A stretch of 64,000 bases of DNA from SAR202 cluster bacterium bin87 (lineage in GTDB: Bacteria > Chloroflexota > Dehalococcoidia > Lucifugimonadales > UBA3495), in assembly GCA_002238825.1 (NCBI GenBank), contig MPNC01000004.1:5241-69240 (forward strand), in the 5' to 3' direction. Position numbers and translations under genes: made by a program. Numbering within the stretch: position 1 is the first letter of the stretch; the number at the start of each line of letters is the position of its first letter. The notes below the pieces were generated by a model. That model had not been told where the DNA came from. It searched no databases and saw nothing but the letters and a program-made list of their open reading frames with translations. Shown here piece after piece: positions 16,301-59,751 of this stretch.

Positions 16301-16503
16301 CCGTCTTCACCAGGAACGAACAGAGACTGGCGGAATTGTTCAACGACATCGGTAAAAACAGCCTCTATGAGGGTGGGCATCCCTCGGTCCCGATGGCGGT
16401 CATGAATTATGACCATGTTCCCGGAGCGTCTGGTGAACCGGACTGTTATCCCCACGCCTTCGACGTGATGGCAGTCTGGGCGGTCTATCAAACGGTGAAA
16501 TGA
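10390..16503 (+). CDS. Giant secreted multidomain protein (CARDB, FN3, three ~230-aa tandem modules, C-terminal metzincin-like protease)
   Basis: Signal peptide ...GTSSAQA. CARDB-like block (...VHNEGDQPAPATTVTFYRS...GEADTTNNCS). FN3 block (PSGLRVTGVTGSSVSLSWNA). HEAGHALGL zinc motif with a downstream AVMNY Met-turn. Confidence 0.9.
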   Translation: MTRTQLPRTRLVLLGLTALVAMLAIGALLWGGSFVGTSSAQAPDTPPDPDAPAVSDGECGVLFTSIPYNIPLGETKEFRWRYENVDVGTLIIHSPDPDIARITDNTGTSVSMRGESRGVGEITLSALCVNEAQKGQRIAVSSPVVVDNADTSEAHEWPPVDGGVTGQQEENAPDLEVLSPLVIPNPATEKSNVRVGVQVHNEGDQPAPATTVTFYRSTDAVITRRDTSLATYNVPILLQFRHQAFLYRFTAPEVNRRTTFYYGACVAAVNGEADTTNNCSKAATLTVNPETVNPPVTAPERPNIKAYWSGTGSGGRYAEAEFERVADDEDYYHSYAVTTLCVGRTCSSTSTSVETIVDDTPDDCNELNDDDCYTTTERYVSFMTLGPSSSATITFYARACKTGNVCSAYASSSVRHTTLPQVPTPSGLRVTGVTGSSVSLSWNAISGASGYRVFYWRTGWNTWRVAETLTGTSHTQRGLSAGVQYYFMVRARGDGVTYFNSYGNASSSVSATPTRPVTFTVFNFSPNPIYAGGTSNVWTVQNGVSSVYMDVDYAVGSRKDSSGGINVQVLNSSNRVTSTVVVDNENDSGTLSGVSAGSRIRVMLENDAWDQHASLVTLTFHSGSSDSAPVIARATLQKERELSRPEENGSPTIENTRSGAVTLHWSRGTEYAGQRPDHYLLVIPGASGTYSSGLKVADAADVDHRISSARSRNLEGTHTASVRHCNAAGGCSDALPITFTLPAYVPPPPPGDVFNFSPNPIYAGGTSNVWTVPSSVSSVYLDVDYAIGQNKDLTGVINVQVLDSRNRVTSTVEVNNENDSTTLSGVSRGSRVRVMLENDAWDLHASSVTLTFHSGTSDSGAEIAKAVVQKERRPSQVPPDGDPTVNNMCPGTVTLHWKRGTVHAGQRPDHYRVVIPNPTNRNAAPLYQNLNVSDANDPVSLPIRASRDNGLEGTHTARVSHCNAAGGCSLPTSISFTMPKCTTGPQPRPVFNFSPNPIRAGGTSTVWTVPSGVSSVYLDVDYATGSIKDSSGGINVQVLDSRNRPTSTVAVGSEGDSGTLDDVRAGSRVRVMLENDAWDQDASLVTLTFHSGASATGPAIARATLQKERELSRPVANGSPTIENTRSGAVTLHWSRGREYAGQRPDHYLLVIPGASGAYSSGLKVADADDVDHRISSARSRNVDGTHTASVRHCNAAGGCSDALSITFTLPAFVTSPPPTRPIPPTMVPSPPPPTNMQLGIHGSRWDALSLTYSNSSWSRSNDHYYQFQLQQRSGSSWSAVGTQVVGTDASTTVVVNFPNQRGDTETFRVFGQRCTNSGYTVCGNFATSATFVLPARPPAPKPESLAVDPRVAGTLNATFRTQSWSWQNAPPGHFYQLQLREPSTGTVVDTVDVSLANPGTISEGFTNVPSNKEYQTRGRRCTYDTNGVYTRCGPWGASVGMPPPPVITRLAPHATSKTAANLTYTSGNLPGVNSSIHQFEREKHDGTNWVSPAIRHSGRSPHVLTGLDEGGRYRVHGRRCLDLTSNFCGYWSPHSEITLNKLQKPEVTVMPVAAGTTPGQREVTIEWPNDPLASNYRVNTTTVGATNLAPVLVGATYSANLRLEDELDTMSAEYSFEVVAENPGSNYADSEPAKVKIVRDPIKRADGDSRNVTGGQAAITWHAQPGGSNFWVWYWQLGHNDDEQVWSGHDDFISEQKSKANTNTAHTVGGLTQKSVYALQLRWTEGDTEVFSGTFSYVWPHDDFPKRGLGDQGRVASYPSFGHWPNRTYTYRFCADTFDPFQAEWSHAINEAFNTWGAATDGYVNIVRSPDACTVGDLRRGPTWLKMTNMVATSLNVNEVYMVNDDDWSFLHKLNLLLFIDDLQGICGLTTPSGCAISRAYGPTQSAKTELSNAAGSKNAVDILFRGSKFSMGGTFVRPTDTYFNQCDGARDTNVHHSYTTALHEAGHALGLSGRLIVAPNDLYDDIAWAVFTRNEQRLAELFNDIGKNSLYEGGHPSVPMAVMNYDHVPGASGEPDCYPHAFDVMAVWAVYQTVK
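11950..14030 (+). repeat. Three tandem ~0.7-kb intragenic repeats
   Basis: Units start at 11950, 12645 and 13357 (VFNFSPNPI.AGGTS...). Units 1 and 3 are near-identical in their second halves. Confidence 0.9.
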
Positions 16504-22563: not shown

Positions 22564-24186
22564 ATGAAGAAACGACATAAAGCAACCGCAGCGCTGGTCG
22601 CAGTCATGGCGTTGGCGCTGGCGGCCACGTACTGGCTTCCGGGAACGGTTGGCGCGCAGACGGTGCCTCCGGACCCGCAGACCACTCCCCCGCCCTCACA
22701 GTCACCGGTCGTCACCTTCCGCGGCATCACCGAAGACAAGTGGAACGAGCTCAGCCCCAGGCCCGTTGGGCAATACCGGGGAGGGAACGCCGGCGACGAT
22801 TACGGCGTGAGCGACCTGCGGCCCTTCGAGGGCGGGCTGGAGGTCGGATGGACGTTCGCGCCCGCCGACAACATCGTGGGCGTGAAGCTGGAACGCCAGA
22901 TGAAAGTGGGCGACGATCATCCCCCCATGGGTTGGACCCTGCTGGAGACCTACACCGAGGACGCGCTGTACTATGATCAGACCGGCGCTCCCGGTTTCCA
23001 GTACCGGTACCGGATCACTCCCTACACTGCCATCCACACGGTCGGGACCATCCACGTGACGGATTTCACGGAGATGATTCCCAGAGATGGGTTCTTCGGC
23101 TACGCGCTCGCCGACACCACCCTGAAGGTGAGGGTCGTGCCCACTCCGGACTTCGAGACCACGGACGGCATATACAGCATCACCATGTTTGACAGCCGCA
23201 CCGATAGCGACCCGTATGAGTACATTGGGCGCAAACCCAGCAGGGAATTGGAGGGGCTCGTTGCCGACAAGGTGTATCGCTTCAACGTGAAGATCGTCGA
23301 GCCGGGTGGAGCCGGTTACGAGACCGTGCAGGAGATTGGCGATTTCTACATCATGACCGGCTTGCCGCCGTTGCCCGAAGCTCCGTCGCCCATTGTTGGA
23401 TTTGGCGTTGGCGGCAAGGGCATCAAACTGAACTGGTCGCGGGTGTTCAACCAGCACCGGAGCCAGTTCGCGTTCTTTGAAATCGCTCGCAGGGACGCCA
23501 AGAACTGGAACGCCCCGTTCGAAATGCTGGGCACCACGACGGGCCAGACTTTCCAGGAACAGCGGGTGACGGATTCGGACGTTGATCATTTCGAGTACGT
23601 GGTGAGCGGCGTCAGCTGGTTCCACCGGCACGGTCCCATACCGGAGCGCGGGCACGTATCGCCGGCGATTCCTCACCCCACCTGTGCCAACAAAGACACC
23701 GGTGACTCGTTGCCGGTCAAGTCTCTCGAACTGGCCCAGGGCCAGCCGAAAGCGCCGCGCAGCAACCGCTTTGCGTTCCAACCACAGCCGGTGGCGCTCG
23801 ACCCGACGGCGGGAACTACGGGCGACAACGCCTGCGGCGGTTTCAGCCCGTCGGACCTGTCGGATTACTTTGTGCTCCGGGCCACGCTCTACCAGGAATC
23901 GCTGTCCGGCAAGTGTTCGGACCCGGACCAGAGCTGTGTGGTCGTCAACCGGAGTCCTGAGGACATGGACATGGACGACTTCGAGCCCGTCATCGGTTCG
24001 TTCCAGCCGGTGGGAGCCTCCGGTAGCGCGTCCATCTGGTACGACCGTGACCTTGAACCGGAGAAGGGGCTCTACCGGTTCGCCTACCACATGTGCAGCT
24101 ACTCCGAGCCCCGGCTGTGCAGCGAGAACCCCTTCCGGAGCGACTGGCGGTTCCAGGGCGTGACGGACCTGCCGTTCAGTAGGTAA
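22564..24186 (+). CDS. Secreted FN3-like protein, paralogue A
   Basis: Signal ...TYWLPGTVGAQ. Collinear similarity to 26397-28019 along the full length. Confidence 0.8.
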   Translation: MKKRHKATAALVAVMALALAATYWLPGTVGAQTVPPDPQTTPPPSQSPVVTFRGITEDKWNELSPRPVGQYRGGNAGDDYGVSDLRPFEGGLEVGWTFAPADNIVGVKLERQMKVGDDHPPMGWTLLETYTEDALYYDQTGAPGFQYRYRITPYTAIHTVGTIHVTDFTEMIPRDGFFGYALADTTLKVRVVPTPDFETTDGIYSITMFDSRTDSDPYEYIGRKPSRELEGLVADKVYRFNVKIVEPGGAGYETVQEIGDFYIMTGLPPLPEAPSPIVGFGVGGKGIKLNWSRVFNQHRSQFAFFEIARRDAKNWNAPFEMLGTTTGQTFQEQRVTDSDVDHFEYVVSGVSWFHRHGPIPERGHVSPAIPHPTCANKDTGDSLPVKSLELAQGQPKAPRSNRFAFQPQPVALDPTAGTTGDNACGGFSPSDLSDYFVLRATLYQESLSGKCSDPDQSCVVVNRSPEDMDMDDFEPVIGSFQPVGASGSASIWYDRDLEPEKGLYRFAYHMCSYSEPRLCSENPFRSDWRFQGVTDLPFSR

Positions 24187-26396: not shown

Positions 26397-28019
26397 ATGC
26401 AGATCACGAGAAAACACCATATATCGGCGGCGCTGGCGGTGCTGATCGCGCTGACTATAGCTGCCACCTACTGGCTGCCCGGAAACGTGAGCGCGCAGAG
26501 CGCGCCCGCAGACCCGCCGGACGGCCAGAACAACGACCCCGCCGCTGTGGTGACGTTCAACGGCATCGACAGGGCGAAATGGGACGAGCTCAGTCCCCGC
26601 GACACTGGCAACAAGCGCGTGCGCCGGTCCTCCAACAGCTACGGCGTGAGCGACCTGGTTCCCTTCGAGGGCGGCCTGGACATCGGCTGGACGTTCGACA
26701 GCAGCGTAAACGCTGTCGGCTACAAGCTGGAACGGCAGATCAAAGTTGACGACGACCACCCGGGCGCGGGCTGGACCCTGCTGAAAACCTACACGGAGGA
26801 CACGCAGCACTACGACCGGACCGGCGCGCCGGGTTTCGAGTACCGTTACCGGATAACGGCGTACACCGCCATCCAGACGGTCGGGTCGGTCCACGTCACC
26901 GAGTTCACCAAGATGATCCCGCGCGATGGGTTCTACGGCTACGCCACCTCTGATACCGAGATGGCATTGTGGGTCGTGCCCACTCCGGATTTTGAGACGT
27001 CCGACGGCATCTATCGCATCACCATGTTTGACGGCCGTGACGACGTCGATGGTACGGAGGTCCATTTCGGGCGCGATACTGACGCGACCGTGGATGATGT
27101 CACGGCCCGCACGGTGTACCGTTTCAACGTGAACATCCTCGAGCCCGGTGGCGCCGGGTACGAGGTGGTGCAGGACCTTGGCGACTTTTACGTCATGGCC
27201 GGCCTGCCTCCGTTGCCGGACGCGCCGGCATCCGTCTCCGGCATGGGCAAGGGCGGTAAGGGCATCAAGATCAACTGGACAGCGCCGGCCAACGTCCACC
27301 GGAGCCAGTTCACGTTTTACGAAATTGGTCGCCGGGATGGCAAGAACTGGGAGTCCAAGTGGGAGATTCTCGGCACCACCACGTCGGGCGACTTCACGGA
27401 GCAGAGGGTGAAGGACCCGGCCATCGCGCACTTCGAGTACGGCGTACGCGGCGTCAGCTGGACCGGGCTGGTCGGTGCGTTCCAGGACCGGGGGCATGTG
27501 TCGCCCGTAGTGCCGTGGCCCACCTGCATCGACAGGCACACCCGCGAACGAATAGGCATTCGGCAGATCAAACTGGTATTCGACTACGAGAGCAATGCGA
27601 AGCGGGGGCCCAGCAACCGGTACGCGTTCAATCCGGAGCCGAACGGGTCAAACCCGGCGAATGACCCCAGGCACCACCAGGATTGCACCGGGTACCGCAT
27701 GGAGGAAATGGCCGACTACTACGTGCTCCGGGCCACCATATACCAGAAATCCCTGTCCGAGACATGTCCGGACCCGGAGAAGACTTGCGACGTCATTGAC
27801 CGGCGCAATCAGATCATCCCGCGCTCTGAGTACGAGCGCGTTCCTGGAGATTTCCTGCTGTACACTGGACAGCTCAATACCATGATCTGGTTCGACCGCC
27901 ACCCGGAACCGGTGAAGGGCCGCTATCAGTTTTCGTACCACATGTGCAGTTACTCAACGCCCTCGCTGTGCAGCATTGACGCAAAATCGGGACCCGAGCG
28001 TGACGAGGAGGGTCAATAG
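26397..28019 (+). CDS. Secreted FN3-like protein, paralogue B
   Basis: SD GAGGAGAG; signal ...TYWLPGNVSAQ. Paralogue of 22564-24186. Confidence 0.85.
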   Translation: MQITRKHHISAALAVLIALTIAATYWLPGNVSAQSAPADPPDGQNNDPAAVVTFNGIDRAKWDELSPRDTGNKRVRRSSNSYGVSDLVPFEGGLDIGWTFDSSVNAVGYKLERQIKVDDDHPGAGWTLLKTYTEDTQHYDRTGAPGFEYRYRITAYTAIQTVGSVHVTEFTKMIPRDGFYGYATSDTEMALWVVPTPDFETSDGIYRITMFDGRDDVDGTEVHFGRDTDATVDDVTARTVYRFNVNILEPGGAGYEVVQDLGDFYVMAGLPPLPDAPASVSGMGKGGKGIKINWTAPANVHRSQFTFYEIGRRDGKNWESKWEILGTTTSGDFTEQRVKDPAIAHFEYGVRGVSWTGLVGAFQDRGHVSPVVPWPTCIDRHTRERIGIRQIKLVFDYESNAKRGPSNRYAFNPEPNGSNPANDPRHHQDCTGYRMEEMADYYVLRATIYQKSLSETCPDPEKTCDVIDRRNQIIPRSEYERVPGDFLLYTGQLNTMIWFDRHPEPVKGRYQFSYHMCSYSTPSLCSIDAKSGPERDEEGQ

Positions 28020-38906: not shown

Positions 38907-40109
38907 TCAGAAAGGCCGGAGCGCCTCGCAGTGGGACGTGACCAGGCGGATTCCGTCGACGTCCCATTTTGCCACCGCCACGGTCGGCTGGCCCGGCTCG
39001 CTGATGGTGGCCGTCATGACGACCCTCTTTTGCGACTTGTTGAACGGGACCGAGTACAGGCCGCGTACCGCCGGCCGCAGCTCGCCCATGGCGCCCGGAT
39101 TGATCTGAGTGCGGTCGGAGAGCACAATCCACTCTCCCTCAATATCGGCCAGCGACGGCGGCCCGTACTTCGTCTCCTTTTCGGGGTCGATGAATTCCTG
39201 GTAGAACGCCAGCAGGATGCGGACACTGCGGTGCGTCCGGTCGCGCAGCTGAGCCACCAGCGTGTCGGGGGCCGGATCGCTCTCGAACTCCTGTGCCCCC
39301 TGGCCGATAAACCACCGCTTCTCCACCCGCTCCCAGATCTCGTCAAAATCATCCTGTTCTCGGGACGTCAACTGCAGGCCGTCCACAAACTCCAGCAGCC
39401 CGGCGGCGTATTCCAGCAGAGCATAGTGGGGGACGTCGCGGTATTGGCTGAACGGATCTCGTGAGGAGCTGGGACGGTCTGACGCCTGGGCCGTGACGGG
39501 ACCCTGCCAGTCGATGTACATGGTGCGGCCGCCGCGGGTGTCGCACTGGTAGGTGAGGGTCGGCGGCTGCGTTCCGGTCTGGTGCAGCGCCTCGTTCCAG
39601 AACCGGTGGACCTCACGGTCTCCATAGTGTTGCTGCTCATCCAGCATCCAGCTGCCAAACCGCGTGGTGGCGGGCGGCACGGGCGTCGGCGTAGGAGCCG
39701 CGGCCGGAGTTGCGGCCGGCGTGGGCGTTTCGGCAGCAGTATCGGCCGGCGTGGCGGTGGGGGTGATTGACGGGACCGGCGTTGCCGTAGCGGCGGACCG
39801 GGTAACGGGCGCCTGGCGCGTGACCTCCACCGTCTGCGGGACCGCCACTTCGCGCGTGACCTCGACGGTCTGCGGAACCACGACCGTGACGGGCACCTGC
39901 TGCGTCGCCATCACCTGGCGCGTGACCTCGACGTTCCTGACCGTTTCGACCGTGACGGGCACTTCACGCGTGACCTCAACCTCAATGGTTTCGGGCTCGA
40001 CGGTCTCGGGTTGGCCGGTGCATCCGGCGACAACTGGCAACAGCAGCAGACTGATGGCGAGGATTGTGCCCATCGGTCGGGCAATGACTGGATTGCGAAA
40101 GTGTGACAT
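38907..40109 (-). CDS. Lipoprotein with VEVTRxV-type repeats and an unknown C-terminal domain
   Basis: Lipobox VVAGC; repeated EVTREVPVTVETV/EVTRQV; Pro/Thr/Ala linker. Confidence 0.75.
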   Translation of the reverse strand: MSHFRNPVIARPMGTILAISLLLLPVVAGCTGQPETVEPETIEVEVTREVPVTVETVRNVEVTRQVMATQQVPVTVVVPQTVEVTREVAVPQTVEVTRQAPVTRSAATATPVPSITPTATPADTAAETPTPAATPAAAPTPTPVPPATTRFGSWMLDEQQHYGDREVHRFWNEALHQTGTQPPTLTYQCDTRGGRTMYIDWQGPVTAQASDRPSSSRDPFSQYRDVPHYALLEYAAGLLEFVDGLQLTSREQDDFDEIWERVEKRWFIGQGAQEFESDPAPDTLVAQLRDRTHRSVRILLAFYQEFIDPEKETKYGPPSLADIEGEWIVLSDRTQINPGAMGELRPAVRGLYSVPFNKSQKRVVMTATISEPGQPTVAVAKWDVDGIRLVTSHCEALRPF

Positions 40110-40134
40110 GATACAAATTCCCGGGATTCTGGAA

Positions 40135-40407
40135 ACGCTTCATGCTTGGACAACGGGAATCGCAGCATAAAGCGGTTGATTACGGGGAGGTACCGCCCAA
40201 GACTGCAGTACAAATGCACGAATTGCACTCTGTTACAATTCGTCCGTTTGACCCCACGGCAACCGCTAAATAGAATATTTGACGGCCTGCTTGGCCGAAG
40301 GGCTTCTCCGTCTCGGCGGAGGCTGCCCAAAAGTCGCGCCCGCTTCTTGCTCAAGCGGGCGTGACATGGTTGTCGGCCTATTTCGGACTGGCCCGAGCAG
40401 GGTTCAT
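40135..40407 (-). promoter_or_regulatory. sORF + structured leader element, copy A
   Basis: sORF MNPARASPK (40407-40378), then conserved hairpins and a long-range AGCGGTTG/CAACCGCT helix. Lies directly upstream of 38907-40109 on the same strand. Confidence 0.55.
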
Positions 40408-41269
40408 GGCAAACCCCGCGTTCGGTAACAGGTAGAGGAAGGACCCGCGGCAGCAATTCGTCCAGCGAAGCAGCGTCCGGGTCACGTCCGGTGGCGTCGC
40501 GTACTTGGGGGCGCCCGATGTGGCAGTGTTGAGATCAGCGGGCGCAGGCATGCTGAGACGCCCCTGGCGCGGACTGTCGTTATCTGCTTCAATCACCGTG
40601 GCACCTCCCTTGCAGTACGCAGGTTAGGTCGCTTGCCACAACGCCTATAGGCCCGGTTGAACTCCGCAAGGAAGGCATGGAAACCTTCTGCGTTGTCGGT
40701 TCAACCGAGTGTGCCCCGAGGGGACACAAGGCAACCATAAAGACGTTGTGGCGTCGCTCACGTTATCACAGGCGTTCCCGGGGTGCAATGCCGACCGCGC
40801 GGTACATTTTCTCTCCGTCCTTTATACATGGCAGGGCGCAATGGCCAAAGAGCGCTGCTGGAGAAATCTGAGACCGTTTGGCGGCGCGCGCGCGACATTG
40901 CGTCGCGGTATGGCGTGTGATACCGTCAGCCATGCCACAGTAATTGCTTATGCCACACGCTCGAAGAGCGTACCCACACTGGCTGCCCATTTAAGGACGG
41001 CAGGGAAGTTTTGCCTTCTCTGCGGCACAGTGTGGGGCGTCGTTACTGTGGCAAGTACCTGACCGTTCCGGTCGCAGGGGAGGTTCCACAATGCCTGATC
41101 GACTGAATTCGCGCTTCTGAGGCCGCATCTTTCGCTCGAACCCGCACTGCCTCCTTCGCTGCGACGTACGTCGTGTGGAGCAGGATGCCACTGCCGCCCT
41201 CCTGACGGAGTTGGCGGCCCCGGTCGTCCCGACCCATCTCTCAACCCATCGCCTGGTCAAGGAGTCCTG

Positions 41270-41512
41270 ATGAACCCCGCTCGGGCCTCTCCCGCGTAGT
41301 CTTGAAAAGTCGTCGCGCCCGCTTGAGCAAGAAGCGAGCGCGACTTTTGGGCAACCTCCGCCGGGACGGAGGAGCCCTTCGGCCAGCAGGCCGCCGGGTA
41401 TTTTATTCAGCGGTTGCCGTGGGGTCAACGGGATGAAGTGCGAACAGCGTCGCAATTCACCCTCCGTTCTACCGTCCCTGGTGGAGCATCCCCGGAGGCA
41501 ACCGCTTCATGC
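41270..41512 (+). promoter_or_regulatory. sORF + structured leader element, copy B
   Basis: SD AAGGAG, sORF MNPARASPA (41270-41299), then the same conserved blocks. Upstream of 41572-42066. Confidence 0.55.
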
Positions 41513-41571
41513 TGCCATCTTCATGCTCCAGGCATGAGGTCGTGTCTCCGCCCCCCACTGGAGAACCCCTC

Positions 41572-42066
41572 ATGCCGCTCACGACGGAGCTCAAGTTATC
41601 GAGACCCCCGGCAGGACGGAGCCGCCTGCCAGTTCTGGCCACGGCCCTGTCATTTTTGTTGCTGGGCGCCGGATCTTTGGGCTGTATCCCAAATCCGGCA
41701 GCTGGCGAGCAAACGCGGTCGTCATGGGGCGCCTGCGCAACCAGGACAGACCAACTGCCCGTTCCCGTCGTGAGGGCCGGGACTACCGACCGGCTGGTGT
41801 TTCTGGGCGTCTCCGTTTCCGACACCGGCAGCCAGCAGGCCGACGCGATCCTGCTGTATCGCTATACGGCGGACCGCGACATCGACCCCATCGCTGAAAT
41901 CCCGCTGTCGGACGGTGCCGGTTCCCAGTCCTTCTATATCGTGCCGGACCCGGACGTCCACGAAGGGTTCGATGCCAGAACCATCAGGCGCAACGCCGTC
42001 GGCCAGACGGTCTGTTCCTTTGACGTCGGGCCGACCGATACCTTCTTCGATTATCGGATTGATTAG
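41572..42066 (+). CDS. Lipoprotein (hypothetical)
   Basis: SD GGAGA; start MPLTTELK...; lipobox GSLGC. Confidence 0.6.
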   Translation: MPLTTELKLSRPPAGRSRLPVLATALSFLLLGAGSLGCIPNPAAGEQTRSSWGACATRTDQLPVPVVRAGTTDRLVFLGVSVSDTGSQQADAILLYRYTADRDIDPIAEIPLSDGAGSQSFYIVPDPDVHEGFDARTIRRNAVGQTVCSFDVGPTDTFFDYRID

Positions 42067-42122
42067 CCCGTGCCTCTTGGCGTCACGACGACGGACCAGA
42101 CCAGGATGCAGAGGATGGAATC

Positions 42123-42518
42123 ATGTTGAACCGCTACATGCCCGCCGTTGGCCTGGCTTTGAGCGCCCTGTTGGTCATGAGCTGTAGCCTCGCCACCGCG
42201 ACCTCCGCTCCGGACCGTCGTTCCACTGATGCCTGCGCGGTCTACTTCATTGAAGATGTTTACCAAACGGCGGTTGGCGATTCCCTGCGCGTTGACTGGA
42301 GGCACCGAGGACCGGTGTACGCGGACCGAGGGAGGCTCAGGATCGAACGTTCACGCCGAGACCTGATCGTGCCCATGGCTGAGCAGCACTACACCCTTCC
42401 GAGCGACCACCATGCTGGCCCGGGCCAGTACGCCATCACCATCACGTACATCTGTGGGCCCGAGCCGTTGCAGCAGGCTCCCGCGGTTTACGACACCGCG
42501 ACCGTGACCGTGCGTTGA
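42123..42518 (+). CDS. Lipoprotein (hypothetical)
   Basis: SD GAGGATGG; lipobox LVMSC. Confidence 0.6.
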   Translation: MLNRYMPAVGLALSALLVMSCSLATATSAPDRRSTDACAVYFIEDVYQTAVGDSLRVDWRHRGPVYADRGRLRIERSRRDLIVPMAEQHYTLPSDHHAGPGQYAITITYICGPEPLQQAPAVYDTATVTVR

Positions 42519-42582
42519 TGCGAGAGCATTCCAGGCGCACCACAACTTTAATGGCCAATCACGCTACTGACAGGAGGATCCC

Positions 42583-42830
42583 ATGATCCACGCCCGAGCC
42601 AGCCCAACGTCTTGCTGAAATGATGTAGCCCCCGCTTGAGTAAGAAGCGGAGGCTACGTTTGGGCATCCACCGCCAGGACGGGGGCGCCCTCGGCCAGAA
42701 GGCCGCTGGATAGTTTATCAGCGGTTGCCGCAGGGTAAAACGGACGTCAACTACGACCAAATCGTGGCCGTCCGATCATCCTCCTTACCAGGCAGGGATG
42801 TTGCCCGGAGGCAACCGCTTTGCGTTGTGT
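42583..42830 (+). promoter_or_regulatory. sORF + structured leader element, copy C
   Basis: SD AGGAGG, sORF MIHARASPTSC (42583-42618), then the same conserved blocks. Upstream of 42952-43308. Confidence 0.55.
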
Positions 42831-42951
42831 GGTTCGTTCCCACCGCGTGACGCGGAGCCTCCTGCATTCACTTTTCATGGATACGACAGACTTGATTGTG
42901 GTCGTCCCGAAGTCCATTGGGATGATTCAATCTGAAGACGGGAGATACGAA

Positions 42952-43308
42952 ATGGCTGGTTCTAGGAACACAGGCCCCACCACAAGTGCAACCGCGACCC
43001 TGCGGGCGACATTTGGGATGGTGGTGGGCGTCGCGATTGGATTCGTACCCTTAGTGTTTGTGGTGATTTTGCTTCCCGACAAAATAGACTTGGTCGTATT
43101 CCTGGCCGGGTGTGCATTGTTGGGATCCCTGGCCGCAGAATTGGTAGAAATGACAAGCAACCATCCGACAACACTGCAATCAGGACCGAGGTCAATGTAT
43201 CGCCATTACGTGCAGACATTCAACTTAGCACGCTTCCTATGGAGAGTGGCCTCTTGGTCCATGCTGGCGACGGCTGGATATATCTTAGCCCAACTGCTGA
43301 AGAGCTGA
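42952..43308 (+). CDS. Membrane protein
   Basis: Start at MAGSRNT (SD GGGAGA); 3 TM segments; lower-GC patch. Confidence 0.5.
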   Translation: MAGSRNTGPTTSATATLRATFGMVVGVAIGFVPLVFVVILLPDKIDLVVFLAGCALLGSLAAELVEMTSNHPTTLQSGPRSMYRHYVQTFNLARFLWRVASWSMLATAGYILAQLLKS

Positions 43309-43616
43309 TAATTGCCGTGTGACCAGCGCTCTACGGTCTGCATTCATTTTGCCTGACCAAGAGGCCCCAAGGTCCCACGCCGGAGCCAGCCCAACGTCTG
43401 CCTGTCCAGTTTCGCAGAGACTTAAACCAAGGTCTCGAGGCCATATGCATCAGGTCCTGGACTCGGTTTGCCGGCGGATTCCAAAATCGCGTCGTCCCGT
43501 GACCGGTTCCTATAGACCGACCGGACTGACCTCACAGAATATAGGACAATCTTCCCCTGGATCTCTATCGCGGCCCGGCTGATGGGACCCACAGTATGTC
43601 CTTTAGCGTCATGAGG

Positions 43617-44690: not shown

Positions 44691-44998
44691 GCCTCGGCCC
44701 ATTTTCGTCGTTCCAAGACCAGGTCCATTGGTACTTGGGCCAATGTCCCCATTGTCGCAACGCGCAGCTTGATACTGGCGTTCGGTGGCCCAATCCCTAG
44801 GGCGGAGAGACATGCCGCTGCTTTTCTTGCGGCGGTGGCTTGGTCATCACGCTAATGTATACGATCCAGTAAACAATGGCTTTCGGACATGACAACCGTC
44901 CATTCGCACGCTGTCGCGGTGTACACATTCCCAGCGGTTCCGATCAATTACCCATCGATGATGGCTCGAAACAATCAGACAGACAAGAGGATGAGAAA

Positions 44999-46669
44999 AT
45001 GAGTGATGACGACCGGATTCCGTACCTGGGTTCTGCTAAGTTGCACAATGTTTCTCCGTTTGGCTCTGAGGTCACGTTCCAATTCGACCCGAGAGTGAAC
45101 GTTCTGATTGGCACGAACGGTACGGGTAAAACTGCTGCCCTGAAGACGGTCTCCGGAGAAGGTCGTAGCCGGTTCGCACAGTCTACCGACAAGCAGTCGG
45201 CGCGTGTGAAAAGAACCATGGAACCCGAGCGCGTTGACTTCGAGAATACGGCGACCGTCCGCGTCGGGCCGGCGCGAGCTCCGTTGACTCCTGAAATGGT
45301 TCTCAGCGACCTTCGGCAGCTCGACGTTCAGGGAATGGTTGCCAAACGGCTGGCATGGGTGAGCAACATCGCCTTCGGAGCGATGGCATTGGCTTGGATT
45401 TATATTGGAGCGCTGGCTGGCGCCTCCGCACGATCTGGCACGAATCCTCAGTGGCTGCAAATTGAGACAGTCAATCTGCTCGTTCCTTTTGTGGTCTTTG
45501 TGATATCTGTCATCTTATACCGGAGTGCCTTGTCGCCACATCGTCTCACATGGTTGCTCAACCTACTAATGGGCAATCGATTGCTGTCGGAGGCTTTGAG
45601 TTCCGAGTTCCAAGTCTCATCGATCTTCATGTTTCAGTCGGTTTTAGCCGTCAATCGGCGCTGGCTGAGGCCTAAAGCAAGGTCGGACGACGACCCGCGC
45701 TCTCGCGCTGCGAATGAAGCCGCCAATCTGGCCCTTGACTGTGCGAAAAGGATTGCGCCGGAGGTGTTTCCCGCAACTACGTCGTTGGAAACCGGGAAAA
45801 TAAAGGTCCCTTTTAATATTCTCTGGATGAAGAAGACGCGTTCCATGGACGATCCTTTGTCCACCGTGCAGACGCGATACAACCCAACCCCCCTACATAT
45901 CACCGATCTGAGCGCAGGCACTCAGAACACGTTGCTTATTGCTTGGTACCTCGCACTCAGTCTCGCCTACAGGAACAAATTCCGAGAAGACTGGAAGGAC
46001 CTGCCTGCGATCCTCTTCATTGACGAAATTGAAAACCACCTGCACCCAGCATGGCAACGAAGATTGATCCCAGTGTTGCTTGAGCATTTCCCCAACTTGC
46101 AAATAATCGCCACAACGCATTCGCCCTTCCCGATAGCCGGACTGAAGGCAGGGCAGGTGCATACCCTGTATCAAGATGACGATGGGATAACCCGCGTGGA
46201 GACCAACGAATACGACATCGTTGGCTATACCGCTGATGAGATCCTGCATCGGTACCTGGAAATGCAGGACCCAACGGACCTGGAGACGGCGGAGGCAGTG
46301 GAGGTGCTGCGGTGGCTACAGAGTCTGTCGCCCCTGCTCGAAGAGAAGTCGGCGGAGACATGGAGAGCAGCGATGGTCAAGGAGTTGCGCGCTCTAGCGG
46401 CCGACGACGAATGGAGATTTGAGGACGACATAGCCATGCGATGGCTCACTGGCGAGATCAAATCCCCCCTTGCTGCCCAGACACCGCTTGAAGGTGATGC
46501 GGAATCATGGCGCCAGTCGATGATGGGGTCGTTTGAGTCGTTGGTGGGAGTGGATATCCTTTCCGGCGGCACGGTGGCAAGGCAGCGAAAGACATTGGAG
46601 GAGCAAATACTCAACGGCACGTTCCCAAAACATAAGAACTTTCAGGGCGATGAAGGTTCGGAAGCCTAA
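44999..46669 (+). CDS. ABC/AAA_21-type ATPase (PtuA-like) with a hydrophobic insert
   Basis: Start at MSDDDRIPYL (SD AAGAGG). Walker A GTNGTGKT, signature LSAGTQ, Walker B ILFIDEIENHLHP, H-loop ATTHSP. Hydrophobic segments LAWVSNIAFGAMALAWIYIGALAG and LLVPFVVFVISVILY lie between Walker A and the signature motif. Confidence 0.85.
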   Translation: MSDDDRIPYLGSAKLHNVSPFGSEVTFQFDPRVNVLIGTNGTGKTAALKTVSGEGRSRFAQSTDKQSARVKRTMEPERVDFENTATVRVGPARAPLTPEMVLSDLRQLDVQGMVAKRLAWVSNIAFGAMALAWIYIGALAGASARSGTNPQWLQIETVNLLVPFVVFVISVILYRSALSPHRLTWLLNLLMGNRLLSEALSSEFQVSSIFMFQSVLAVNRRWLRPKARSDDDPRSRAANEAANLALDCAKRIAPEVFPATTSLETGKIKVPFNILWMKKTRSMDDPLSTVQTRYNPTPLHITDLSAGTQNTLLIAWYLALSLAYRNKFREDWKDLPAILFIDEIENHLHPAWQRRLIPVLLEHFPNLQIIATTHSPFPIAGLKAGQVHTLYQDDDGITRVETNEYDIVGYTADEILHRYLEMQDPTDLETAEAVEVLRWLQSLSPLLEEKSAETWRAAMVKELRALAADDEWRFEDDIAMRWLTGEIKSPLAAQTPLEGDAESWRQSMMGSFESLVGVDILSGGTVARQRKTLEEQILNGTFPKHKNFQGDEGSEA

Positions 46670-47478
46670 TGCGTGGCGTAAACAGGGGTGCTCCTCCAAG
46701 GAGTGTGAATCTTGAAAAGTACCAGCACGCCAATGCTGAAGGGAGCGGTCTGACCAAGCACGACTATGACTTGTTGCGAAGGCGGTTGCATGGTGAGTTC
46801 GGCGGCTTATGCGCCTTTTGTGAGCGTCCAGTGCCCAGGAATAGCAGTCCCGGTGCGGTAGACCACTTCAGACCCAGGAACCCAGCCACCGGTTCACAAC
46901 TGGCCCACTTCGGCGCTGACTTGACGTTCATGTGGCTGAACCTGATGTATGCATGCCCTGAGTGTCAGACAAGAAAAGGCAACAAGTGGCCGGGTACCCT
47001 GAAGGCTCAAGACGAACAGGCAATTGACAGAGGTCTCTCTCAGCTGGCTACAAGCGATGGATGGTCGTACTTGCCTGTCTCGGTCGATGTCGGGTACGTG
47101 AACCCCAATGGAATTGATGACCCAGCGGAGGGATATTTCGAATACGACGAAGTTGAGTACCGTATAGCTCCCTCCCGCGATTTGCCCGACGACCGGCGCT
47201 CGAAGGCTCTCCGAACGATATTCGACATTGGATTGGATGAAGAATCGTTGTCCCAGGAGCGCCGCAACCACATTGATGTCATCAAGCAATATCTCGAATC
47301 CAAAGGAACGCGAAGGAGGACAGAAGAGATAGGCGCATTGGTTAGCCGCCACCGCCGGAGAAAACTGAAGGATACAAAACCAAGTGCTTACGGGCCGAGC
47401 GTGCGTTTCACTGGATTGGTATTGTTTGCCCACCAACATGGGTGGTTGGAAACCGCAAACAACAGGAATATGCCATGA
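46669..47478 (+). CDS. HNH endonuclease (PtuB / TIGR02646-like)
   Basis: TAATG overlap with the ATPase gene. CAFCERPV...VDHFRPRNP...WLNLMYACPECQTRKGNKWP. Confidence 0.8.
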   Translation: MRGVNRGAPPRSVNLEKYQHANAEGSGLTKHDYDLLRRRLHGEFGGLCAFCERPVPRNSSPGAVDHFRPRNPATGSQLAHFGADLTFMWLNLMYACPECQTRKGNKWPGTLKAQDEQAIDRGLSQLATSDGWSYLPVSVDVGYVNPNGIDDPAEGYFEYDEVEYRIAPSRDLPDDRRSKALRTIFDIGLDEESLSQERRNHIDVIKQYLESKGTRRRTEEIGALVSRHRRRKLKDTKPSAYGPSVRFTGLVLFAHQHGWLETANNRNMP

Positions 47479-49465: not shown

Positions 49466-49580
49466 TATTTATGGGCAAGTCGCGGAATTTTTGGGCAGGT
49501 GACAGAATTTATGGGCAACTTCTGGAATTTATGGGCAAGTCGCGGAATTTTTGGGCAGAATCGAATTTTTGGGCACCGCC
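49466..49580 (+). repeat. Iteron-like array R2: 6 units phased at 20 bp (GAATTTWTGGGCARN)
   Basis: GGGCA cores at 49473, 49493, 49513, 49533, 49553 and 49571. The array ends ~20 bp inside the right island junction and has the same orientation as R1. Confidence 0.85.
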
Positions 49581-52343: not shown

Positions 52344-52456
52344 GGCCTTGCCCGTAAAATCAAGAGCGTGCCCGTAAAATCAAGAGTTTGCCCGTAAATT
52401 CGACGTTTGCCCGAAAACTCCGAGCATGGACGATTTTTGGGCAAGACCTCGGGCAA
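52344..52456 (-). repeat. Iteron-like array R3: 4 reverse units at 20-bp phase plus a convergent forward unit
   Basis: TGCCC cores at 52349, 52369, 52389 and 52408 (TGCCCGTAAAATC type), then GATTTTTGGGCAAG at 52431-52444. Confidence 0.8.
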
Positions 52457-54050: not shown

Positions 54051-54108
54051 GACGGGTGGACTTTGCAAAGGCCCTGCCCGGTCCGCGCGGCTCACCCGTA
54101 CCCGTTTT

Positions 54109-54375
54109 GTCATCGCGAGGAGCGACGCGACGCGGCGATCTCGTTCCCGCATTGGCGTTCCTTGCCCCAACGAGATTGCCACGCTTCGCTCGCAATGACG
54201 GTTCCAGAGAAGACGGTACCAGAGAAACTGGGTACGCGTGAGGTCCCAGGGCATTTCCAAAGTAGCTTTTGTCATTGCGAGCGCAGCGCGGCAATCTCGC
54301 TCCGGGGCATGACTCATACGGGAAAGCCTTGTTGCATCGACGGGATTGCCACGTCGCTCCGCTCCTCGCAATGAC
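54109..54375. repeat. REP-like palindromic repeat cluster (4 units)
   Basis: GTCATTGCGAGCG.AGCG.GGCAATCTCG and its complement. The same units recur at 58309-58403 and 59565-59655. Confidence 0.85.
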
Positions 54376-54469
54376 GGGTGGACTTTGGAAAAGGCCCTGG
54401 TGAGGTCCGCGCGGGGTTTGACTCCACCCGCCAAGGCTGCTAATCTGGAATCGTTAACAACTGAACCGT

Positions 54470-54811
54470 AAACGCCTGCCGGTGGCCCGTTAGTAGCGCG
54501 ATCAATCCCCAGCGCACGACGGGCTGAAAAGGAAATCCGGTGAGAATCCGGTGCGGTCCCGCCACTGTAATTGGCGAGACGCCCTCCCTTTCGCATCCCC
54601 GTGGTGCGAACGCAAGCCACTATCCGCCATCGAGCGGACGGGAAGGCGGAGGAGCGTCGTTATCAGCCATCAGCCAGGAGGCCTGCCAGCAGGTGTGTTC
54701 CAGCTGCACTTCGTGGAACGAGTGGGCGGAATCCCGGTATACCCAATAGCAAGACCGGTTCCCAGCCGCAGGCTCCGTCGCCCGACCGCAAGAGTGCAGT
54801 CGGGTTTTTTT
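54470..54811 (+). promoter_or_regulatory. Cobalamin (B12) riboswitch with intrinsic terminator
   Basis: GAAAAGGAAATCCGGTGAGAATCCGGTGCGGTCCCGCCACTGTAA (B12 box) ... CAGCCAGGAGGCCTGCCAGC. Terminator CCCGAC-loop-GTCGGG plus T7 at 54781-54811. Confidence 0.85.
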
Positions 54812-58308: not shown

Positions 58309-58403
58309 GCATGGGTGGTCGTCACCGCGAGGAGCGCAGCGACGTGGCGATCCCGTTCCCGTGGCGATGGTTGTTGCCCTGACGAGATTGCCACGCTTCG
58401 CTC
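58309..58403. repeat. REP-like palindromic repeat pair
   Basis: Same family as 54109-54375. Confidence 0.85.
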
Positions 58404-58428
58404 GCAATGACAGGAGCCGGGAATATTC

Positions 58429-59499: not shown

Positions 59500-59564
59500 C
59501 GAACCGAAACGCCAGCCCGGTTAAGAGCCTCGATTCCTCACGCGTACCCAGTTTCACCGGAACC

Positions 59565-59655
59565 GTCATTGCGAGCGAAGCGCGGCAATCTCGTTGGGGC
59601 ACGGAACGCTACTACGGGAACGCGATCGCCACGTCGCTTCGCTCCTCGCGATGAC
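59565..59655. repeat. REP-like palindromic repeat pair
   Basis: Same family as 54109-54375. Confidence 0.85.
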
Positions 59656-59751
59656 AAAATGGGTACGCGTGAGCCTCGATTCACCGGGATATACATGATC
59701 AGCCGGATACACAGGATGTGTTCCCGATCATTCTGCGCATCGCGGTAAATT

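Follow-up and report, generated by a model that had tools for sequence, protein, structure and literature searches.

The window analysed here, a 64,000-nt stretch of a contig from SAR202 cluster bacterium bin87 (Chloroflexota), carries three full copies (A, B and C) and one fragment (D) of an element, S. This element appears to be a ~330-nt control cassette placed before surface-protein genes of sponge-symbiont Chloroflexi. It would combine a tiny peptide ending on the motif RASP with a folded mRNA leader, in which the ribosome-binding site of the following gene is masked, and with a probable antisense RNA of ~90 nt encoded on the opposite strand. Two further full copies (F and G) lie in other assemblies, and a partial copy (E) lies on a separate low-depth contig from the same sponge metagenomes; all three come from related sponge-associated Chloroflexi. 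The family thus comprises five full copies besides the partial copy E and the fragment D. The cassettes and their neighbouring features are:

38907–40109, minus strand: cargo A, the gene of a 400-aa lipoprotein
40109–40445, minus strand: S copy A, whole cassette (nhmmer E = 1.4e-90 and alignments), reaching the gene A start codon (40109)
40590–40800, minus strand: U1, upstream partner element, a promoter and SD-sequestering 5′ UTR that feeds S(A)
40886–41100, plus strand: U2, same element as U1 in divergent orientation, feeding S(B)
41233–41574, plus strand: S copy B, whole cassette (nhmmer E = 3.5e-92), reaching the cargo ATG at 41572
42535–42905, plus strand: S copy C, the segment absent from the matching intergenic site of locus L025; right edge ± ~10 nt
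43346–43404, plus strand: fragment D, a decayed SD and sORF piece in which AAG replaces ATG and GASP replaces RASP
L030:2358–2690: copy F, full, other assembly
L032:4925–5256: copy G, full, other assembly

Distribution and modularity of the cassette

Alignment confirms the three copies that the original prediction had placed in the window (core alignment: A, 40135–40410, minus strand; B, 41268–41515, plus strand; C, 42581–42833, plus strand), and nhmmer E-values of 1e-85 to 1e-92 exclude chance for them. The listed borders of A, B and C are approximate, our own, and wider than this core. The fourth sORF-like piece, originally bounded at 43371–43404, is real and slightly larger: fragment D shares 18 of 19 bases with the sORF region of C, where chance would give 0.03 such matches (nhmmer E = 0.007). 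It breaks off before the first hairpin, P1, and sits where the gene for cargo C is truncated compared with its orthologue in L025. In all five full copies the 3′ end is at or adjoins the start codon of a co-oriented gene. Copy E, rebuilt from read and contig differences, keeps the architecture and was left out of the covariation analysis as too incomplete; the statistics below rest on the five full sequences, of which A and B belong to one inverted duplication.

Among known RNA families, Rfam 15 gave no relevant match: the gathering-threshold scan of the window finds a cobalamin riboswitch only, and at E ≤ 10 the region 40000–43600 yields two chance-level matches of 18–19 bits against gathering thresholds of 44–114. 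The family seems narrow, since no further copies came from exact-pattern scans of large collections of genomes and metagenomes, nor did any come from those of viral collections, an absence that says little as the window's own contig is not in these collections. The one genome match was due to chance, within a gene resembling release factor 2 (prfB) by translation, while scans of viral contigs returned 0 matches and 7 unrelated ones, and the metagenome-contig scan 7 unrelated ones. No match to S was found by blastn among plasmids and phages. A protein-coding remnant is ruled out by 1-nt indels between copies and by antisense ORFs without frame conservation. The omega-RNA of TnpB, considered after a TnpB gene was seen adjoining a lipoprotein homologue in locus L021, has no similarity to S. 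An 11-mer, GGTCGTCCCGA, occurs in two exact copies, at the right edge of C and in the region upstream of B.

The cargo proteins of A, B and C are mutually unrelated by BLASTP, as had been read from the sequence. A fusion is suggested for cargo A, whose first 12 codons (MSHFRNPVIARP) resemble the N-terminus of the large upstream protein of related operons. By BLAST, cargo C is the truncated orthologue of a 204-aa membrane protein of L025, and a word-indexed search for its homologues returned none beyond the window's own protein. Comparison of related genomes indicates that S is modular, with the same genes occurring there without it. L025 is 91% identical over the flanking genes B1–B2, with 78 nt in place of the window's 433 nt, and the cargo of L032 (U, S and an RCC1-like gene) is 71% identical to that of L019 (U and an RCC1-like gene), from which S is absent. 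IS elements and TnpB genes are frequent in related loci. S usually lies downstream of U, a second and more widespread 5′-UTR element whose copies U1 and U2 have a -10 of the form GATAAY; neither U nor the SD-sequestering hairpin at the 3′ end of S was part of the original prediction.

Putative leader peptide, sense structure and a probable opposite-strand core

The sORFs that were first reported are present in all three window copies, as are the SDs reported for B and C:

40378–40407, minus strand: sORF A, MNPARASPK-stop
41270–41299, plus strand: sORF B, MNPARASPA-stop, with SD AAGGAG at 41259–41264
42583–42618, plus strand: sORF C, MIHARASPTSC-stop, with SD AGGAGG

All five full copies have RASP in the sORF, the readable part in E is ASP, and none of the six readable copies shows a variant. 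Pairwise differences in the RASP codons of the five full copies are all synonymous in frame (21 versus 0 non-synonymous), compared with 4/21 and 0/23 synonymous/non-synonymous in the other two frames, and include the switches AGT/TCT/AGC for Ser and CCG/CCC/CCA for Pro. Because RASP persists through these synonymous changes, the sORF looks translated; it is under coding constraint. Translation from the sORF's own start puts only four residues ahead of the Arg in B, C and F. In A and F the frame can also be entered from the U start codon (in A it is open upstream to GTG 40596, the start codon from U1; 72 codons), and in G it can be entered at an ATG that lies 16 nt beyond the U start; these longer in-frame ORFs of A, F and G (57–80 codons) have no conserved sequence. 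By inspection, neither the short nor the long translations contain a consistent hydrophobic signal or transmembrane segment. P1 follows the stop codon at a distance of 12 nt (6 nt in C), and the sORF ends 200–250 nt upstream of the cargo start. A second candidate sORF after P4 (MLRF...PP, with the anti-SD read as Pro-Pro) gave no coding signal (23 synonymous versus 89 non-synonymous differences, like other frames).

The 3′ half of S contains P4, a 10-bp long-range stem (AGCGGTTGCC/GGCAACCGCT) with a variable insert inside, followed by P5 and P6:

40171–40267, minus strand: P4 of A (40258–40267 with 40171–40180), enclosing the variable insert
40118–40135, minus strand: P6 of A, a pairing of the anti-SD UUUCC with the cargo-A SD GGGAA (SD unpaired probability 0.08)
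41409–41564, plus strand: sense 3′ half of B; P4 41409–41418 with 41497–41506, P5 41508–41513 with 41531–41536, P6 anti-SD 41545–41549 with SD 41560–41564
42720–42879, plus strand: sense 3′ half of C; P4 42720–42729 with 42810–42819, anti-SD CCTCC 42858–42862, terminal ATG 42877 in the cargo frame

Six pairs of the sense structure are changed on both sides, compared with 2.0 ± 1.0 in shuffles (0 of 500 reach six). P4 shows a U-A to C-G change and sense-strand wobbles in E, F and G, and P6 covaries as UUUCC/GGGAA, UCUCC/GGAGA and CCUCC/GGAGG. The predicted unpaired probability of the cargo SD is 0.00 to 0.12; copy C is without a local SD partner for its anti-SD. As modelled, P4, P5 and P6 are sense-strand RNA structure, closing with an anti-SD/SD hairpin that sequesters the cargo SD.

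Upstream of P4 lies the core, where divergence is lowest (identity is ~90% here and ~50% in the insert). The conserved blocks originally listed were all recovered: P1, a 13-bp hairpin with the loop GAG(C/T)AAG, the block TTTGGGCA (in A, B and C), P2 (CCTCCG...CGGAGG), P3 (GGCC-N4-GGCC) and the P4 stem. The reported C(UUCG)G-type loop was not upheld, being merely the P2–P3 linker with one U lost in C, F and G. The core and the antisense units predicted from it are:

40283–40365, minus strand: core of A, the proposed antisense target region; P1 40333–40365, P2 40300–40328, P3 40283–40297
41312–41393, plus strand: core of B; P1 41312–41344, P2 41349–41377, P3 41380–41393
40248–40375, plus strand: predicted antisense unit of A; -35 TTGACC 40248–40253, -10 TAGAAT 40271–40276, ~92-nt RNA 40284–40375 (-51.5 kcal/mol, z -5.3)
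41302–41428, minus strand: predicted antisense unit of B; -35 TTGACC 41428–41423, -10 TAAAAT 41405–41400, ~91-nt RNA 41392–41302 (-53.0 kcal/mol, z -5.2)
42615–42739, minus strand: predicted antisense unit of C; -35 TTTACC 42739–42734, TGn and -10 TAAACT 42717–42712, ~90-nt RNA 42704–42615 (-49.1 kcal/mol, z -5.5)

Read in the sense direction, the non-canonical cells of P1–P3 comprise eight A·C or C·A and no G·U, whereas those of P4, P4a and P5 comprise 14 G·U and two A·C; counting minimal independent events only, the G·U to A·C ratios are 0:6 versus 8:2 (Fisher ~0.004, our own calculation). All transition mismatches of P1–P3 turn into G·U on the antisense strand, and mutational bias is ruled out as the cause since the asymmetries are opposite in two adjacent segments. 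Comparing A·C with G·U in adjacent helices is a reusable approach to finding sense and antisense RNA genes that overlap, with no need for expression data. The core folds better as antisense than as sense RNA in all five full copies (by 2.8 to 8 kcal/mol; z -4.6 to -5.6 versus -2.8 to -4.5), with an identical three-hairpin fold in all five predicted antisense RNAs. A predicted sigma-70-like promoter points into the core on the opposite strand, away from the cargo. Its -10 fits TAnAnT in six of six copies (TAGAAT, TAAAAT, TAAACT, TACACT, TATAAT, TAGAAT) and is preceded by TGn in C, E, F and G; the promoter scan called it in A and B (10/12 matches each) and in G (TCGACC-16-TAGAAT with TG), and in F a weak -35 accompanies a perfect TGnTATAAT. 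No canonical intrinsic terminator was found at P1 on either strand by a terminator scan, the U-runs being short on both sides. Taken together, the core predicts a ~90-nt three-hairpin antisense RNA, and S would include a probable gene for it on the opposite strand.

It is unlikely, in our view, that S is instead, as the original prediction mainly read it, a purely sense-strand cis-regulatory leader, in which a ~250-nt P1–P6 structure and the leader peptide act as an attenuator or riboswitch-like element and the opposite promoter is only an AU-rich joining region. The coding constraint on the sORF and the covarying sense helices P4, P5 and P6 are consistent with such a leader, as are full-length sense folds (z -3.5 to -4.7), the UUUU after P1 in A, B and G, and the compensatory changes in P1, which are valid equally on both strands. 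However, the mismatch pattern of P1–P3 is the reverse of that in the 3′ half, the core is the less stable in sense in every full copy, the U-run is lost in F (UCUC) and E (UCUU), and the antisense -10 is kept in six of six copies whereas E, F and G no longer allow a sense TAnnnT reading; the lack of an Rfam match also speaks against it. The ~220-nt sense leader first described survives in its 3′ half, through covariation, but not in P1, TTTGGGCA, P2 and P3, which behave as opposite-strand sequence with a predicted promoter of its own. Likewise, the suggested control by leader peptide or RNA structure keeps its support in the sORF and the sense 3′ structure, while the most conserved blocks fit the other strand.

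Origin and proposed working of the cassette

The original prediction had also considered a promoter-carrying mobile cassette. Mobility is supported, with S absent from the L025 site and from orthologous operons, but the predicted promoter faces away from the cargo. That S is no more than a non-autonomous mobile repeat (MITE/PATE-like), conserved through recent spread and affecting genes incidentally, is highly improbable. The presence/absence polymorphism relative to L025 and L019, the common IS elements and TnpB genes, the position of fragment D at a rearrangement boundary beside a Septu island and a possible 8–9-bp inverted match at the edges of C (ACCACAA...TTGTGGT) would suit such a repeat. 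The hallmarks of MITEs and PATEs are nonetheless lacking, as the copies share no terminal inverted repeat and show no target-site duplication, including at the filled and empty site of C, and the scans of plasmids, phages, viruses, genomes and metagenomes found no further copies. Four whole sponge metagenomes contain only two local copies and one other within 80% identity (only A and B map to B, and only C, D and E to C). The fixed position and orientation of the full copies against a start codon, the uneven divergence, the compensatory changes and the purely synonymous RASP differences form a pattern of selection, unlike that of recent copying.

Least probable of all is an invertible switch with A and B as its arms, in which recombination of the inverted 74-nt, 93%-identical cores would flip a ~860-bp promoter segment and phase-vary surface proteins: the inverted repeats I3 and I4, the divergent promoters between the arms and the surface-protein cargo agree with it, but contigs from four metagenomes at ~50x depth run unbranched through A (39774–40824) and B (40798–42338), without a joint at the element edges, although rare variants can hide in contigs, a flip would change little since what lies between the arms is itself a symmetric inverted duplication (U1/U2), no recombinase is among the ORFs scanned, and C, F and G are single and without an inverted partner.

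We therefore favour, with a probability of roughly 55%, the reading of S as a modular ~330-nt regulatory cassette that is read on both strands and precedes genes for surface, secreted and eukaryote-like repeat proteins in sponge-associated Chloroflexi. On the sense strand, the cargo mRNA would include a short ORF, translated from an SD of its own and ending with Arg-Ala-Ser-Pro-x-stop. Cargo translation would be off by default because the CCUCC box of P6 pairs with the cargo SD. On the opposite strand, a sigma-70-type promoter inside the cassette, with the 5′ strand of P4 as its spacer, may drive a ~90-nt RNA with hairpins P3′, P2′ and P1′, a perfect complement of the leader between the sORF stop and P4. 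This RNA could bind the leader just behind the sORF and lower cargo expression, for example through duplex cleavage or blocked downstream unfolding. A ribosome pausing on RASP or terminating there would abut the pairing site and might modulate the antisense interaction, and P6 would also have to open for the cargo to be translated. A model in which antisense binding frees the cargo SD by alternative pairing was rejected: constrained folding with the target blocked left the predicted SD accessibility unchanged, so that no thermodynamic link between antisense pairing and P6 was found. Recombination may swap the cassette between genes, together with the SD, the start codon and the small number of N-terminal codons that it carries.

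A bolder and rather doubtful extension is that S, together with U, constitutes a previously undescribed plug-in gene-control cassette, in which a convergent cis-antisense RNA and a minimal stalling peptide with RASP work together on one leader and the unit, with its SD, start codon and N-terminal stub, is recombined between genes for surface and eukaryote-like repeat proteins. If so, sponge symbionts could rewire the expression of host-interaction genes. Lipoproteins and the LRR and RCC1/WD40 repeat proteins are thought to mediate host contact; sponge-associated Chloroflexi are uncultured and, to our knowledge, almost nothing is known about how these lipoproteins and eukaryote-like repeat proteins (LRR, RCC1/WD40) are regulated. 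The locus offers a concrete, testable regulatory unit made of a peptide, a predicted antisense RNA and a masked ribosome-binding site, and it also reveals the more widespread U.

Comparison with known systems

Like the MITEs Correia, ERIC and BOX, S is a small structured intergenic repeat that would be co-transcribed with its neighbours and may carry promoters; unlike them, it shows no terminal inverted repeats, target-site duplication or high copy number, and it has peptide-coding constraint. With IS10 RNA-OUT/RNA-IN and other mobile cis-antisense pairs it shares a compact modular build and, as predicted for S, an inward promoter for a stable hairpin RNA that can pair with the 5′ region of the neighbouring mRNA, whereas S has no transposase, inverted repeat ends or target-site duplications and would control unrelated host genes. 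Unlike in a trp-type attenuator, the run of U behind P1 varies between copies, a ribosome on the sORF stop codon falls short of P1 and no alternative pairing was seen in the folds. Leaders of the ermC/cat type likewise have an upstream short ORF and a regulated SD held in an anti-SD hairpin. In ermC the stalled ribosome directly remodels adjacent hairpins, whereas in S ~200 nt and the large P4 domain separate the sORF from P6, with no alternative pairing in silico.

The peptide itself recalls the RAPP-like arrest peptides (SecM RAGP, ApdA/ApdP RAPP, ApcA RAPG), with which it has in common an invariant Arg-Ala-x-Pro near the C-terminus of a small co-oriented uORF. Known RAPP-like arrest peptides require an upstream segment within the exit tunnel, whereas the peptides of B and C have only 9–11 residues and no tunnel-spanning segment; the sORF of S also has no signal peptide or transmembrane segment and ends one to three codons after the Pro. 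RAPP-like motifs are reported close to the C-terminal end of small ORFs that precede diverse genes (PMC10987492, PMC12992588). RASP itself is reported to occur naturally in place of RAGP in the arrest core of SecM; it is one of the motifs given for SecM-clustered uORFs (PMC10987492) and is not among the sequences assayed for stalling (PMC10987492, PMC12992588). If the RASP sORF does stall ribosomes, it would be among the shortest RAPP-like arrest units known, and the class would then reach into a new phylum and cover a new kind of regulated gene.

Antisense RNA, leader ORF and masked start are also combined in plasmid rep control (R1 CopA/tap/repA, IncI/IncB Inc RNA/repY/repZ and IncI2 AS RNA/repR/repA; PMC8053102). 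Both there and, as predicted, in S, a ~70–110-nt stem-loop RNA arises from the complementary strand inside the regulated leader, which contains a short ORF, and the translation start of the regulated gene is structurally masked. Unlike that of CopA or Inc RNA, the antisense target in S begins after the sORF stop, leaving the ribosome-binding site of the sORF uncovered, and with 200–250 nt between sORF and cargo start, direct translational coupling is not evident. S further differs from the plasmid systems in its cargo of chromosomal surface and repeat-protein genes, in its three predicted hairpins and in having no sequence similarity to them. In our reading, S would be a new variant of control by antisense RNA and leader peptide.

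Distribution of the cassette S

The original prediction described three copies of a short ORF (sORF) joined to a ~220-nt structured leader, each in front of an unrelated secreted or membrane protein gene. These copies, A (40407-40135, minus strand), B (41270-41512) and C (42583-42830), are genuine and lie where they had been placed; they align over ~330 columns with a mean identity of 76% and long invariant blocks, and are referred to here as the cassette S. The sORFs, the Shine-Dalgarno sequences (SDs) of B and C, hairpin P1, TTTGGGCA, the CCTCCG/CGGAGG and GGCC-N4-GGCC motifs and the long-range pair AGCGGTTGCC/GGCAACCGCT were all recovered. The proposed UUCG tetraloop is a mere linker and is not conserved across copies. 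A profile built from A, B and C matched only these three in the window, plus a 59-nt 5' fragment, D (43346-43404), which is the fourth sORF-like piece suspected at 43371-43404.

Rfam, a suggested check, holds no family for S. Exact-pattern scans of genome, viral and metagenome collections returned chance matches only, and blastn against plasmids and phages gave no match to S. When assembly contigs of four sponge metagenomes were compared with B and with C at 80% likeness, B recovered only A and B, and C recovered C, D and a new partial copy, E, located on a contig of other depth (8-23x vs ~60x) and with an sORF ending ...GCC AGT CCA AGA TAA (ASPR*). Two further full copies, F (L030:2358-2690) and G (L032:4925-5256), were found in other assemblies at loci with homologues of the lipoprotein cargo, the cargo being the gene directly behind S; a profile search of ~400 kb of related DNA yielded no more. 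So far, S is restricted to a narrow lineage. The window itself is part of a contig from a sponge-metagenome MAG (GCA_026713265.1, also JGI 3300027532), and protein homologues of the window proteins are labelled Chloroflexi.

Strand assignment of core, 3' half and sORF

On the evidence of its helices, which are tuned to the antisense strand, and of a conserved promoter there, the conserved core of S (hairpins P1-P3) appears to belong to the opposite strand. Counting non-Watson-Crick cells per helix in the five full copies gave 8 A·C/C·A and 0 G·U cells for P1, P2 and P3, as against 14 G·U and 2 A·C cells for P4, P4a and P5 of the 3' half; a sense-strand A·C is a G·U on the antisense strand. The three mismatches in P1 each have their own position in A, B and C. 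With minimal independent events only, the counts are 0:6 vs 8:2 (Fisher ~0.004, our own calculation), and a strand-specific mutation bias cannot account for neighbouring segments that differ in sign. The ~90-nt core is predicted to fold into the identical three antisense hairpins in every full copy, and the antisense is the stabler strand in 5/5 copies (-46.9 to -53.8 vs -43.5 to -48.3 kcal/mol for sense; z-scores -4.6 to -5.6 vs -2.8 to -4.5). A predicted sigma-70-like promoter on the P4 side faces the core, its -10 (TAnAnT) being kept in 6/6 copies and its weak -35 boxes going with an extended -10.

Predicted antisense promoters and, for the window copies, transcripts
A: TTGACC-17-TAGAAT; transcript 40284-40375 (+)
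B: TTGACC-17-TAAAAT; transcript 41392-41302 (-)
C: TTTACC-16-TAAACT; transcript 42704-42615 (-)
E: GTGACC-16-TACACT
F: weak -35, perfect TGnTATAAT
G: TCGACC-16-TAGAAT, with TG

The last antisense hairpin, P1', is followed by U-rich GACUUUUC, GACUAUUUC or AUCAUUUC, an arrangement that falls outside the terminator rule of the prediction scan. We estimate the probability of an antisense RNA gene within S at roughly 0.6. A purely sense-strand leader does not explain all of these features: it accounts for the sORF and for P4-P6, but leaves the strand asymmetry, the energy difference and the conserved -10 unaccounted for.

The 9-mer TTWTGGGCA, which comes after P1 in copies A and B of S, has 12 occurrences in the window vs 0.85 expected. 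Most of them make up two arrays whose period is exactly 20 nt (1593-1664 and 49467-49575) and which look like iterons or operator arrays, and single sites occur at 40324-40332, 41345-41353 and 52435-52443.

The 3' half, comprising the long-range stem P4, the small hairpin P5 and the anti-SD/SD hairpin P6, is likely to be a sense-strand structure. In P4 of copy F a U-A pair is replaced by C-G, and P4 carries sense-strand wobbles in E, F and G; P5 shows the same replacement in C, along with many G·U pairs. In P6, a CCUCC box pairs with the cargo SD and covaries with it, as UUUCC/GGGAA (A), UCUCC/GGAGA (B) and CCUCC/GGAGG (F, G). The covariation anticipated for the helices was borne out, with both-side changes in 6 pairs over all named helices vs 2.0±1.0 when shuffled; 0/500 shuffles reach 6, and slid controls gave 0-4. 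The cargo SD has a predicted unpaired probability of 0.00-0.12 in A, B, F and G, and the sequence indicates that the 3' half masks it.

The sORF peptides are MNPARASPK, MNPARASPA, MIHARASPTSC, MNLARASPT, (TTG)NGIRASPT and ...ASPR. Across the four codons of the Arg-Ala-Ser-Pro (RASP) motif, pairwise differences among the five full copies comprise 21 synonymous and 0 non-synonymous changes, compared with 4/21 and 0/23 (synonymous/non-synonymous) in the other two frames, and the Ser codon varies between AGT, TCT and AGC. Such a pattern is direct evidence in the sequence that selection acts on the peptide, and the sORF is probably translated. In B and C the short ORF stands alone, behind its own strong SD. 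The RASP frame of A and F is open upstream as far as a start codon supplied by U, a second 5'-UTR element upstream of S, and that of G to an ATG 16 nt downstream of the U start codon; these extended ORFs span 57-80 codons of unconserved sequence. A possible second small ORF (41509-41571, +, and homologous sites in A, F and G) starts with an AUG or UUG that closely follows P4 and lies ~10 nt behind a GGAGG, and reads MLRF...(H/N)(D/E)(A/V)xPP, with the anti-SD read as Pro-Pro codons and, in B, the frame shared with the cargo gene B1. Its substitution pattern carries no coding signal, and we rejected it as coding.

Modularity of S and the upstream element U

Comparison of loci indicates that S is optional, since L032 (U-S-RCC1-like gene) has it and L019 (U-RCC1-like gene) does not, before cargo proteins that are 71% identical. 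Over B1-B2 (41616-42534), L025 and the window share 91% identity, and the intergenic region measures 78 nt in L025 vs 433 nt with S(C) in the window. The junctions of S are located within coding regions. Homology of B1 to L025 begins at ~codon 15, and cargo C (42877-43308, +), an orthologue of the 204-aa L025 membrane protein that is truncated to 118/143 aa and 40% identical to it, has its N-terminus extended from a cassette-borne ATG at 42877. Gene A (38907-40109, -) is an intact lipoprotein onto which a 12-codon N-terminal stub, MSHFRNPVIARP, appears to be fused; the stub is similar to how the large partner protein of related operons begins (MAHFFNGVRRYP). Fragment D is positioned exactly at the cut-off of the cargo-C gene, beside a Septu (PtuA/PtuB) system. 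We infer that S moves as a unit by recombination, with its own SD, start codon and short coding stub. A MITE would account for the presence/absence pattern, but this explanation fails, S having no termini shared between copies, no target-site duplication at the C site, a low copy number in four sponge metagenomes and an uneven, selection-like divergence.

An exact 11-mer, GGTCGTCCCGA, occurs at 41222-41232 (~40 nt upstream of sORF B) and at 42900-42910 (right edge of the S(C) insertion), and may reflect recombination microhomology or chance. The Septu-type defence pair (44876-47478, +), a PtuA-like ATPase (597 aa, E=7e-36) and a PtuB-like HNH protein (269 aa), lies just past both fragment D and the shortened membrane-protein gene, a position that suggests island insertion there. 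In one related assembly, a TnpB-like gene (OrfB_IS605/Cas12f-like; L021:4693-5946), 55 nt upstream of the lipoprotein homologue, occupies the place held elsewhere by U or S, and several IS21, IS110 and DDE transposase genes surround related lipoprotein operons.

U is spread more widely than S. Copies A, B, F and G of S each have U upstream of them; in five other loci (L019, L022, L023, L031, L034) U adjoins the start codon of a lipoprotein-family gene or large partner gene without intervening S, and in a sixth, L025, likewise without S, it lies ~95 nt upstream of the B1 homologue.

Positions of U
40590-40800 (-): window, feeding S(A)
40886-41100 (+): window, feeding S(B)
L019:2869-3081, L022:3984-4194, L023:1696-1917, L025:9180-9371, L030:1989-2181: other loci
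L031:6442-6623, L032:4590-4785, L034:9817-10005: other loci

The element consists of a promoter (TTGCGC or TTGACC, then TGTGATAAY) and a ~165-nt 5' UTR with a long closing stem (GCCACAG...CUGUGGC). Covariation was found in 14/24 predicted pairs, the anti-SD GCCUUCCUUGCG pairs with the U SD CGCAAGGGAGG with two compensatory changes, and Rfam gave no match to U in the window. U appears to be a riboregulator not described before, one that acts by SD sequestration on a family of operons for lipoproteins and repeat proteins. In the A and B sides, [U-spacer-S] is duplicated in inverted orientation about a centre near 40843, and the two halves have diverged; an inversion switch between them has no support, as contigs are unbranched in four metagenomes, and the idea could not apply to C, F and G, which are single copies.

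Elsewhere in the window, a cobalamin riboswitch (54463-54704, +; 94 bits) precedes apparently cobalamin-related genes. Around the genes downstream of it, ~90-126-nt palindromic repeats (54086-54211, 58321-58411 and 59553-59678, with shorter pieces at 54265-54376), 84-90% identical and present as both direct and inverted copies, resemble MITE or REP elements. A 2037-aa ORF (10390-16503, +) contains ~700-nt tandem repeats (11950-13656; 84-86% identical), and two paralogous genes for fn3-containing proteins (22801-23541 and 26640-27383), 3.84 kb apart, are 74-78% identical. LRR and WD40/PD40 proteins, eukaryote-like kinds that are typical of sponge symbionts, are also encoded.

Proposed working and known systems

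S is very probably functional, and we tentatively propose that it combines an antisense RNA, a ribosome on the sORF and P6. The antisense RNA would pair with the leader right behind the stop codon of the sORF, with a U-rich tail that is the predicted complement of the 12-nt spacer after that stop, and would repress the cargo through duplex cleavage or a block on later unfolding. A ribosome paused on RASP, or terminating there, would abut the pairing site and tune pairing, and translation start of the cargo would also require P6 to open. In silico, no thermodynamic link between antisense binding and P6 was found, which makes both the coupling and the direction of any effect uncertain.

R-A-x-P cores (RAGP, RAPP, RAPG) have been reported as ribosome-arrest motifs, and such motifs occur close to the C-terminal end of small ORFs that precede diverse genes; RASP is named among the motifs of SecM-clustered uORFs (PMC10987492, PMC12992588). 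The S sORF resembles RAPP-like arrest peptides, but differs in having neither their upstream tunnel segment nor a signal sequence (signal peptide). Unlike in the control of plasmid rep genes, the antisense target of S does not overlap the leader RBS and there is no translational coupling. With these defining features tested, S is therefore a member of neither family, and its closest working analogue is the antisense-RNA and leader-peptide control of plasmid rep genes (PMC8053102).
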